64,000 nucleotides of DNA, taken from NCBI GenBank assembly GCA_050010355.1, contig JBEKLE010000007.1:3976-67975 (forward strand), written 5' to 3'. The notes under the pieces were generated by a model. The model was not told where the DNA came from, did no database searches, and saw only the letters and a program-made list of their open reading frames with translations. The DNA comes from Rhodopila sp. GTDB taxonomy: Bacteria > Pseudomonadota > Alphaproteobacteria > Acetobacterales > Acetobacteraceae. The translations under genes were made by a program, and so were the position numbers. Of this stretch, positions 17,040-55,758 are shown piece by piece (position 1 is the stretch's first letter; each line of letters starts with the position of its first letter).

Positions 17040-17163
17040 TCCCCCTGCACTTTCCTTCAGACGGTCCCTTGCGGTTCCACCCTTGCGCTTCACTCGTGCT
17101 TCACCTCCATCAGGTTGCACAGGGGACTTTCACCCTCCAGACTGCAGGACATGCCCAGCGCAC
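17040..17163 (-). mobile_element. Group II intron 5' end remnant (domain I only, no RT ORF)
   Basis: Minus strand starts GTGCGCTGGGCATGTCCTGCAGTCTGGAGGGTGAAAGTCCCC (GUGYG start plus GGGTGAAAGTCCC); hairpin at 17165-17186 immediately upstream; downstream boundary approximate. Confidence 0.6.
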
Positions 17164-17424
17164 GGGTGGGCCTTCGGCCCCCCACCTCCCGCACACGATA
17201 ACCTTTCGAACCGAAACCTGGCCCCCACCGGCCAGCGGTTTCCGCGCGCCGGTGTAACCCAGAAAGGGTCCTATCGAACCCGAAAAACCGCGACTCCGCG
17301 AAGACAAGCCAAACCTGTCCTTGATATGGGTCAACGACATGGATCTAGGTTACGCTATGGGCGATGAGGCGTCCGCTGAATGTCGGCACGGGCGCTCCAG
17401 ATAGTTTCGAAGAGGGGCAAAAGT

Positions 17425-50838: not shown

Positions 50839-50842
<4 letters not shown>
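49403..50842 (+). CDS. 4-hydroxyphenylacetate 3-hydroxylase family flavin-dependent monooxygenase (oxygenase component)
   Basis: TGAEFLRGLRDDREVWLGG, MGRTPDYMN, GARVLATLAP, LKFICR, PLSGRFDEQDA..IFDNVEVP, LYERFY-like tail; AGGAG RBS. Confidence 0.9.
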
Positions 50843-52044
<1,202 letters not shown>

Positions 52045-52953: not shown

Positions 52954-53190
52954 CACAGGCGACGCCTGGCAATCCCGATTCGCCCGGGGGTGTGTCGGGG
53001 GTGTGACACACCCCTCCCCATCAAGGTGGCCATTCGCGAAAGGGCGCTGCACGCCGCTCCGCGTCAAACCGAGGCAGTTCGGCATCCACGCTTTACGATA
53101 ACCGTGTCGGCAAAGCCGTGGATGGAGGGCCTTCGCCCGCCAGGACGCAGGTCATGTCGCCCGGCAGGGGCAAATCGGGCGAACCCTGTT
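52951..53190. repeat. Composite palindromic intergenic element
   Basis: GGGGGTGTGTC/GACACACCCC hairpin, core CGGCATCCACGCTTT...AAAGCCGTGGATG shared with family A, GATTCGCCCG/CGGGCGAACC imperfect inverted pair. Confidence 0.55.
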
Positions 53191-53289
53191 ATAGCGGGCT
53201 GAACCCGCCGGACAGTGCGGATCGCAGCCGCCAGATTTTTGCGCAGATTAAGGATGGCTGCACGCGAATGCACGCAGATCAAGGCGGGA

Positions 53290-53779
53290 TCACAGGCCAT
53301 TCGCTACCCGCTTGATTTCTAGTCGCGACTTGCCGAAGTTAAGCAGCAGGCAAAGCGGCAAGCCGGATGCCTTGAGGTAGTTGACGCACTGGGCACGATG
53401 CCCTTCATCCCAGGCACTCGCGGTCTTCAACTCCACCAGCAGCGCTTGCTCGACAAACAGGTCGACAAAATACTGACCGACAACGACGCCATCATAGTAC
53501 CTCCCGTCATCGATTCTGCGGTGATACTGCGGCGGGTTTGCGACTCTGGCCAGGACGTTTCGTCGAGCCGAAACCCCGCAGTATCAGTGACCCGGGGTAA
53601 TAGGTGACCGTAAGGCCTCGCTGCTGCACGACATCCAGCCCCGTCTTGCGCAATTCGTGCGCCAAAGCGTTTTCATAAACCTTCTCCAGGAATCCCGCTC
53701 CAAGCGTATTGAGCACGGCAAAAGCGCAGCCGATGACGCGCCCCGACAGTTCATTCAGCCGAATTTCGTCCGCGTGCAT
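53290..53779 (-). pseudogene. GxxExxY family (PD-(D/E)XK-like nuclease) gene interrupted by a MITE
   Basis: MHADEIRLNELSGRVIGCAFAVLNTLGAGFLEKVYENAL...QQRGLTVTY | DGVVVGQYFVDLFVEQALLVELK...QCVNYLKASGLPLCLLLNFGKSRLEIKRVANGL*. Confidence 0.9.
53498..53599. mobile_element. 102-bp MITE with a 4-bp target-site duplication
   Basis: ATAG at 53494-53497 and 53600-53603; termini TACCTCCCGTCA / TGACCCGGGGTA; internal arms GATACTGCGG / CCGCAGTATC. Confidence 0.85.
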
Positions 53780-54018
53780 CTGCGTGCATCCTATTTTGTA
53801 TCTGCGTAAAACCTTCACTTCCGACACTGGCAGCAAATCATTGCCAAAGTATTGACCGCTCGGGCACGCGGATGCGCGCGAAACCAAAACGATACCGCCA
53901 CGCGCAGAGTCCGGCCGGCTGGTATTGCTCTCGCCGTCTACCTGGTGCCCTTTCCCCCGATCGCCCTGTGCCGCCCAGACGGCCGTGTTGCCAGACCGTG
54001 ACCGTTCAGGATACGTAG

Positions 54019-55530
<1,512 letters not shown>

Positions 55531-55758
55531 TGAGAAGGCGCGACAACAGGGGCATCGGCGACGAAAGCGGCAGCTTATCGGTTCGCGGCGACACGCCGTT
55601 CACGAACTCCAGAACGGACCCGATGTGGGCATCCCAGGTGGTGCCCGCCCAGCCGGGCAACCGCGCCATTTGCGCGTTCCGGCGGTCAACGCGGCGACCG
55701 GGCGCGACTGGTAGATCCGGAAATGAAAGGTTCTCCAGTACGCGCCCTGCGAACACTG

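Follow-up and report, generated by a model that had tools for sequence, protein, structure and literature searches.

A 64,000-nucleotide stretch of the Rhodopila sp. genome (contig JBEKLE010000007.1; "the window" below) carries, between an amidohydrolase gene and pobA, a gene of the GxxExxY nuclease family that is bracketed by imperfect inverted repeats, here called arms, and split by a small insert. We consider it probable, with moderate confidence, that the locus represents a GxxExxY cassette framed by repeats, in a copy that has decayed, and that the arms of this cassette work as DNA elements. The evidence comes from the anatomy of the locus, from the empty state of the same junction in congeners, from the recurrence of matched arms at GxxExxY genes of many phyla and from arm pairs that stand in the source genome without a gene. 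In what follows G000 is the source genome (8.1 Mb), other G numbers are congeners and C numbers are contigs; the window copy is of the C7 type.

The GxxExxY gene of the window

The gene lies on the minus strand, with its ATG start at 53779-53777 (opening MHADEIRLNELSG / MHADEIRLNELSGRVIGCAFAVLNTLGAGFLEKVYENALAHELRKTGLDVVQQRGLTVTY) and a TGA stop at 53292-53290. A preliminary description of this DNA, made from its letters, reported a GxxExxY gene of ~130 amino acids; hidden Markov model matches bear out the family assignment, but not a continuous reading frame, since the gene is split after codon 60 and would encode 127 amino acids if uninterrupted. The frame that opens at 53779 runs into foreign sequence and then a stop, and a second frame, from 53493 to the TGA, encodes DGVVVGQYFVDLFVEQALLVELK...RVANGL. 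Against TIGR04256 (curated cut-off 35 bits) the two halves reach 55.9 (N-terminal) and 70.1 bits (C-terminal), and both also match PF13366 (PDDEXK_3) above its curated cut-off; with the insert left out and the halves joined, the score is 130.6 bits over TIGR04256 profile positions 2-115. The GxxExxY motif (GFLEKVY) and the catalytic D...ExK (VDL...VELK), whose residues are invariant or nearly so in homologue alignments, are intact. The single lesion is an interruption of 106 bp that brings a frameshift and a stop, and the window copy is a pseudogene. The features of the locus, in window coordinates, are:

52954..54063, no strand: whole spacer from the amidohydrolase stop to the pobA start, 1110 bp; unique DNA, a repeat at 53052-53147 resembling repetitive extragenic palindromes (REP-like), the cassette and the nested insert
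53168..53236, minus strand: 3' trailer, outside the arm, common to the paralogs on C135 and C82; contains a small hairpin, GCGGGTTCAGCCCGC
53237..53287, minus strand: 3' arm, inverted phased units reading TTTTGCGCAGAT-TAAGGATGGC-TGCACGCGAA-TGCACGCAGAT-CAAGG on the plus strand; begins 2 nt past the stop
53290..53493, minus strand: C-terminal part of the gene, codons 61-127 and TGA; catalytic VDLFVEQALLVELK intact; TIGR04256 70 bits, PF13366 67 bits, profile 50-116
53494..53603, no strand: insert resembling a miniature inverted-repeat transposable element (MITE) with its flanking ATAG; insert 53498-53599, 102 bp; ATAG at 53494-53497 and 53600-53603
53600..53779, minus strand: N-terminal part of the gene, codons 1-60, MHADEIRLNELSG...TVTY, with GFLEKVY; TIGR04256 56 bits, profile 2-51
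53765..53812, minus strand: 5' arm, sense-strand units TTTTACGCAGAT-ACAAAATAGGAT-GCACGCAGAT-GCACGCGGAC; start codon within the last unit
53813..53896, minus strand: 5' leader, 82% identical to that of the C135 copy

The insert is preceded and followed by ATAG in the window, where the paralog on C135 has a single ATAG and reads straight through (an empty site). Its ends are imperfect terminal inverted repeats of ~12-24 bp (TACCTCCCGTCA... and ...TGACCCGGGGTA), and the whole is predicted to fold into a hairpin of -39 to -41 kcal/mol. Five relatives are 75-83% identical to it, one on C267 of the source genome and four in congeners (G008:C19, G079:C23, G079:C20 and G051:C486). Alignment of three of the five shows CTAG-TAC...GTA-CTAG at the borders of C267 and G008:C19 and, at G079:C23, one end of which is degenerate, CTAG on one side and CTA on the other; the insert duplicates either a (C/A)TAG tetranucleotide or TA. 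Because of its terminal inverted repeats, its hairpin, the related copies with like flanks and the empty site in C135 we take it to be a low-copy MITE. This 102-bp element inactivated the window copy, and it is absent from all relatives of the cassette among the 77 congeners.

That imperfect inverted repeats bracket the gene, as the preliminary description had it, is confirmed: the arms at 53237-53278 and 53769-53811 are identical at 33 of 42 positions with one gap, and their local score is 33, against 14.1 +/- 2.1 (maximum 24) in 1000 shuffles. They are built of units spaced 10-12 bp apart (..ACGCAGAT / ..TAGGAT / GCACGCAGAT / GCACGCGGAC), and the upstream repeat does supply the start codon, the ATG sitting within the last unit of the 5' arm. 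The 8.1-Mb genome has four copies of a 12-mer of the arms, ATGCACGCAGAT, all of them at two GxxExxY loci, each of which has one inverted pair. Upstream of the 5' arm a leader stretch, GTCAAT...TTGGCAAT, is partly conserved in related cassettes of other genomes, and the leader may carry a promoter. A promoter scan of the locus gave no sigma-70 consensus promoter, and a terminator scan of the locus detected no "terminators" other than the arm units. In the leader, a sigma-54-like TGGCA-N-TGC has its spacing off by one base and was dropped.

Inverted arms at other GxxExxY genes

The source genome has nine GxxExxY loci, eight of which have their own matched flanking inverted arms, so that the other copies do not lack the repeats, an outcome that the preliminary description had named as fatal to its proposal. 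Arm sequence varies among subfamilies yet agrees between the two ends of one gene: the units are of the TGCACGCAGA type on C7, C135 and C82, of the GATGAACGCGAAT type on C222, of the GGATGAAGGGGAT type on C93, C456 and C59, and of the ACACGGAGAACACGAAG type on C146. Intact genes with near-perfect arms include those on C222 and C93, and an L024-type gene has arms that are identical over 38 nt. The same arrangement is found in a sample of 76 GxxExxY loci from Pseudomonadota, Planctomycetota, Acidobacteriota, Cyanobacteriota, Chloroflexota and other phyla, most of which are framed; the inverted-repeat score between a locus's own flanks has a median of 46, compared with 20 when flanks are swapped between loci and 18 in direct orientation. 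Arms of the family comprise 2-4 units, repeated every 10 bp, that have the core ..AAC(C/G/A)(G/A)C-N-GAT(G/A).. in common; the 5' arm typically reaches from -30 to +12 relative to the start, and the 3' arm opens 0-20 nt past the stop. Inverted arms are a property of the GxxExxY gene family. Under the family names, we found no description of these arms in the full text of the literature, only incidental mentions.

Insertion between the amidohydrolase gene and pobA

In congeners G003, G005, G009 and G010 the amidohydrolase stop and the pobA start adjoin each other or overlap (e.g. GCCTGAGATGCGC), the gap being 0-10 nt, whereas the window has 1110 bp. The site is thus empty in four of the seven congeners in which both flanking genes are adjacent, and the locus is not syntenic and fixed across relatives, the other outcome that had been foreseen as contrary to a mobile unit. 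This comparison indicates that the cassette arrived as an insertion in a normally tight amidohydrolase-pobA junction. The same junction holds, in G001 and G017, a gene-less foldback with GGAG-type phased arms; the window insert has no homology to the G001 and G017 inserts outside pobA, and the insertions are therefore independent events. Since other copies keep their arms and the site is empty in congeners, the proposal that gene plus repeats form a mobile unit survives as far as one inserted unit is meant. That this unit mobilises itself is no more than possible: what is copied exceeds the repeat-bounded segment, no target-site duplication was found at the locus, and the three copies are ~10% diverged and all dead.

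The foldbacks of G001 (L007, G001:C2) and G017 (L008, G017:C170) are homologous to each other, with TTTTTTACCACGGAGG.. in both arms in G001 and TTTTAACACAGAGAA.. in both arms in G017; the two arms of one element change together. Congener G011 (L011:580-960, G011:C15) has another GxxExxY gene, of 60% amino acid identity, just downstream of pobA and convergent with it, which is an independent cassette.

Copies in the source genome and in the genus

Two further copies in the source genome, C135:9654-10271 (L093:1654-2271) and C82:~17070-17400, lie at unrelated loci and match the window copy over 53168-53896 with ~90% identity. This common stretch passes the 3' arm by 69 bp and the 5' arm by 84 bp, and the three-way homology stops near 53168, so that, contrary to what had been supposed, the repeats are not the boundaries of the unit. 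The window and C135 copies agree at 66 of 69 positions in the trailer, 49 of 51 in the 3' arm and 45 of 49 in the 5' arm. Trailer and 3' arm taken together show 5 differences in 120 positions, fewer than the 14 in 93 synonymous sites (p = 0.007), and the 3' arm and trailer appear from this comparison to be either constrained or homogenised. Congener G036 has some ten dispersed loci of the GGATGAAGGGGAT subfamily, with 81-89% identity over stretches of 500-770 bp; its copies share a leader of ~150 bp and a trailer of ~90 bp past the arms, a REP often coming after it, and about half have internal stops or merely a partial profile match. When distant genomes are compared, conservation halts at the outermost unit of each arm. 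The arms are the conserved core, and the segment recently copied within a genome is larger.

All three C7-type copies are dead, as are six of the nine GxxExxY loci of the source genome in all. In the C135 copy the codon of the catalytic lysine has become a stop, 9 bp are deleted and invariant residues are changed; the C82 copy has lost its 5' end and contains a stop. For the window and C135 copies the ratio of nonsynonymous to synonymous divergence (dN/dS) is 0.22, with dS 0.17; purifying selection has therefore acted on the gene during most of the period after these copies diverged, and inactivation came late. The C135 cassette has taken the place of the 3' two-thirds of a tandem M20 hydrolase paralog. 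This M20 amidohydrolase paralog is frameshifted and ends after ..FQPAEKGRGGAEAI, whereas congeners have 2-3 complete tandem copies, and a deletion therefore accompanied or followed the C135 insertion.

Among the 77 congeners the number of PF13366 matches per genome ranges from 0 to 27; 12 genomes have none and 65 at least one. These presence/absence and copy-number comparisons are between species only. An exact match to the amidohydrolase protein occurs on one 1.8-kb contig, which is identical to the window and ends inside the trailer.

Arm pairs without a gene

Arm pairs of the C222 and C146 subfamilies also occur without a gene, 90-180 bp apart, on C497, C320, C16, C120, C1 and C43. Three of these gene-less foldbacks occupy junctions that are tight in congeners. 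One is the formate dehydrogenase alpha/beta junction, 9 nt in G001 and holding a gene-less foldback in the source genome; another is an engB/yidC-like junction, which measures 7-59 nt in most of the twelve congeners compared and 280 nt in G001. The third, the rplO/secY spacer, ranges from 84 to 1942 bp among congeners, and the large rplO-secY spacers of G011 and G007 contain no GxxExxY genes. The inserted blocks at gene-less foldbacks, about 375 and 560 bp, exceed the arm pair and include unique DNA. The edges of two blocks are short direct repeats, GGGCATGACCG / GGGCAAAGCATGACGG in one and GTCACG / GTCACG in the other, in which the start or stop codon of the neighbouring gene is included; this hints at target duplication.

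The foldback at C16:19107-19289 lies inside the ~375-bp block, whose flanks are a near-duplicate of the beta-subunit start region (GGGCATGACCG ... GGGCAAAGCATGACGG). That at C320:6525-6642, in the rplO-secY spacer, has GAACCGCAGAT-type arms and lies within an outer GC-rich stem, at a place where G009 shows a simple terminator hairpin. The foldback on C1 is at C1:67430-67552.

The nuclease

An intact homologue, modelled with 39 sequences, gave a confident structure (pLDDT 94.9, pTM 0.89). Its top fold matches are Cas4 proteins (SSO0001, TM 0.59 query-normalised, and Pcal_0546), lambda-type exonucleases and the AddAB nuclease domain, and the GxxExxY protein is predicted from the model to be a minimal RecB/Cas4-like PD-(D/E)XK core that has no Fe-S module. 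D71, E81 and K83 are invariant or nearly so among the 39 homologues. A sequence search of the PDB returned no significant relative of the GxxExxY protein, and the fold search alone was informative. The cassette has no Pfam or NCBIfam match to a transposase, the PD-(D/E)XK nuclease being its sole open reading frame. PF13366/TIGR04256 is a very large family, whose function is listed as "unknown" in a census of the superfamily (PMC3424549).

Surroundings of the cassette

The preliminary description placed the gene in otherwise coherent surroundings; this is too simple, as the spacer also has a dispersed REP-like repeat and pobA has a 3' lesion. From the amidohydrolase end the spacer consists of 98 bp of unique DNA with a hairpin, the REP-like repeat at 53052-53147, the cassette at 53168-53896 with its MITE, and 167 bp of unique DNA. 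The hairpin (52987-53014) has a perfect 10-bp stem, GGGGTGTGTC / GACACACCCC, and an 8-nt loop, and lies 35 nt past the amidohydrolase stop with no T-run. The palindromic REP-like repeat (..CATCCACGCTTT...AAAGCCGTGGATG..) adjoins the cassette trailer; about seven copies of 71-78% identity are present in the source genome and many in congeners (G016, G017, G009 and G001).

The pobA reading frame (54064-55533, 489 amino acids) matches models of 4-hydroxybenzoate 3-monooxygenase over residues 1-369 of ~393 model positions. Near 55168 its last ~25 residues are replaced by a 120-amino acid read-through into REP-like sequence, and its start is TTG in the window and ATG in congeners. The reading frame of a CobW-like GTPase at 50839-52044 has in-frame REP-derived peptide text (..MPTEVGIHAFPATNQTHEW..) at window positions 51365-51535.

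Interpretation

On the reading we favour, the cassette is a unit of ~0.62 kb comprising leader, 5' arm, a 127-codon gene for a Cas4/RecB-like PD-(D/E)XK nuclease, 3' arm and trailer. The arms, inverted arrays of 10-bp-phased ..C-N-GAT(G/A)NAC.. units, act at the DNA level, and may be arrays of binding or cleavage sites presented on one face of the helix. Judged from the whole of the analysis, they most likely serve as sites for the cassette's own Cas4-like nuclease. Nuclease and arms may form a partnership like those of REP/RAYT or Ssn/NTS (see below), one that would let an arm pair, with or without its gene, be copied between genes elsewhere, chiefly into operon junctions and spacers rich in hairpins; the route of copying could be transposition, repair-mediated homing or another. 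The window copy was then killed by the 102-bp MITE, and its sister copies by a stop codon, deletions or truncation.

A much wider proposal, which we think unlikely as things stand, is that GxxExxY cassettes form a class of very small DNA elements, mobile or persistent, that spans phyla and has gone unrecognised, in which a minimal Cas4/RecB-like nuclease, the sole protein, assembles on the 10-bp-phased units of the two inverted arms and the arm pair, whether it has the gene or not, is copied into operon junctions. If it were true, the source genome would show the whole life cycle of such an element, from intact through MITE-killed and mutated copies to gene-less foldbacks. The near-constant framing of these genes by phased inverted units prompts a concrete hypothesis, that the arms are the nuclease's substrate, which could assign a function to the whole PF13366/TIGR04256 family. 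The window copy, a dead and fairly old example, is a poor candidate for biochemistry. What the locus contributes is a clean empty-site comparison with four congeners, arms and a trailer that have changed more slowly than silent sites, a test of the RNA-pairing explanation (see below) and a caution that the copied unit exceeds the arm-bounded segment.

Several observations weigh against the favoured reading. Neither the window copy nor the C135 copy has a recognisable target-site duplication, and since the copied unit extends 70-85 bp past the arms (90-150 bp in G036) the arms do not look simply like transposon termini. The copies within the genome are old (dS 0.17), no movement was observed, and the nearest cassette to that of the window in any of the 77 congeners is only 78% identical. 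Solo repeat copies, which the preliminary description proposed to count, number none for the window subfamily genome-wide: G000 has no solo or gene-less copies of C7-type arms, and the few 11-mer matches are at chance level. Binding and cutting of the arms by the nuclease are things that we only infer. A search for protein-DNA covariation compared units having ACGC with those having ACAC: the variants do not cluster on the protein tree, which needs 8 changes where shuffled data average 8.5, and none of the alignment columns follows them (best 0.53 bit). The ACGC/ACAC position looks like free CpG-type drift, and the result does not bear either way on readout of the invariant GAT core.

Some of the same facts would suit an explanation that needs no mobility of the cassette's own, namely that GxxExxY is an ordinary, often horizontally transferred accessory gene, that the arms are operators by which a potentially toxic nuclease regulates itself, and that it has spread by general recombination and horizontal transfer only. 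At most loci the ribosome-binding region and the ATG fall within the 5' arm, the copied unit takes in leader and trailer as a gene with its control regions would, no target-site duplication was found and the copies are old. Operators would have no gene to control in the gene-less pairs, however, and these proliferate: they persist in multiple copies (C16, C120, C1, C43, C497 and C320) and are found at the window site itself in G001 and G017. The range of 0-27 copies within the genus and the many pseudogenes also look like the dynamics of a selfish element, and we regard the operator explanation as improbable.

A host function could also have preserved the system. In a domesticated repeat-and-nuclease system, of the kind proposed for Ssn/NTS in natural transformation or for REP/RAYT, the nuclease would act in trans on dispersed arm pairs, and the arms that flank its gene would mark the birthplace of the repeat. 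Purifying selection on the gene (dN/dS 0.22) and the retention of at least one copy in 65 of 77 congeners would fit this, and there is a precedent in Ssn, 42% of ssn genes having the target repeat on both sides (PMC11893778). Six of the nine copies in the source genome are broken, though, 12 congeners do without any copy, and the window subfamily has no dispersed repeats to act upon, and we find domestication quite hard to credit.

The preliminary description offered, lastly, that the repeats might pair in the RNA and so sequester the gene, that is, that a long-range 5'-3' stem in the transcript locks the mRNA and hides the start codon as in the hok fold-back. The arms are indeed complementary, the 5' arm holds the ATG and the gene is short enough to pair end to end. 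Among 56 loci with clear arms, however, 78 arm mismatches are G:U-compatible in the mRNA and 80 are compatible in the antisense only (A:C), with no excess of G:U (binomial p = 0.94), so that the selection for 5'-3' pairing expected of hok-type control is not seen; the mismatches fall mostly at variable positions of the units and not as compensated pairs. The constraint on the arms is strand-symmetric, as expected of protein-binding arrays or DNA secondary structure. Because of this symmetry, because Rfam at permissive thresholds finds nothing relevant at the window locus or in a G036 cassette with its leader, and because gene-less foldbacks bear the same arms as gene-bearing cassettes, RNA sequestration is not supported and we judge it very improbable.

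Comparison with known systems

With insertion sequences (IS) and MITEs, and with Mu and Tn7, the GxxExxY cassettes share the existence of gene-bearing and gene-less versions with the same inverted ends, variable presence and copy number and frequent pseudogenes, and the repeated units of the arms resemble the multi-site protein-binding ends of Mu and Tn7. The cassette differs from IS, Mu and Tn7 in having no known transposase (DDE, HUH, serine or tyrosine), in that no target-site duplication was found at the locus, and in a homology that passes the arms. Free-standing homing endonuclease genes are likewise small nuclease genes in intergenic gaps, whose flanking DNA is co-transferred and which require neither terminal inverted repeats nor target-site duplication; unlike the cassettes, they have no inverted repeat arrays and leave no gene-less foldbacks, and copies at unrelated loci are not explained by homing.

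The REP-associated tyrosine transposases (RAYTs) are HUH/Y1 (IS200/IS605-like) enzymes that act on single-stranded DNA hairpins and are usually single-copy. In REP/RAYT systems (REPtrons), as here, one small nuclease-type gene is flanked by inverted copies of its presumed target repeat, gene-less doublets of the repeat occur in intergenic spacers, and the repeat variant is specific to the gene lineage. The differences are that there is no HUH/Y1 gene here, the protein being PF13366 with a Cas4/RecB-like fold of 127 amino acids; that GxxExxY arms are 10-bp-phased arrays and not a single palindrome; that the genes are multi-copy and often dead; and that the window subfamily has no dispersed copies.

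The Ssn/NTS systems, the nearest published parallel, with REP/RAYT as the other close one, consist of GIY-YIG nucleases flanked by the repeat that they cut, on both sides in 42% of cases (Chenal et al. 2025, PMC11893778). There binding and cleavage have been shown experimentally, and a host role in natural transformation has been proposed, whereas GxxExxY is known from sequence. The two have in common a small nuclease gene framed on both sides by a short repeat, as at most GxxExxY loci, and differ in that a GIY-YIG enzyme and an SRM hairpin stand against a PD-(D/E)XK enzyme and phased direct units in inverted arrays. If the arms are its substrate, the GxxExxY protein would be the third, structurally unrelated nuclease, after RAYT and Ssn, to lie inside its own target repeats.

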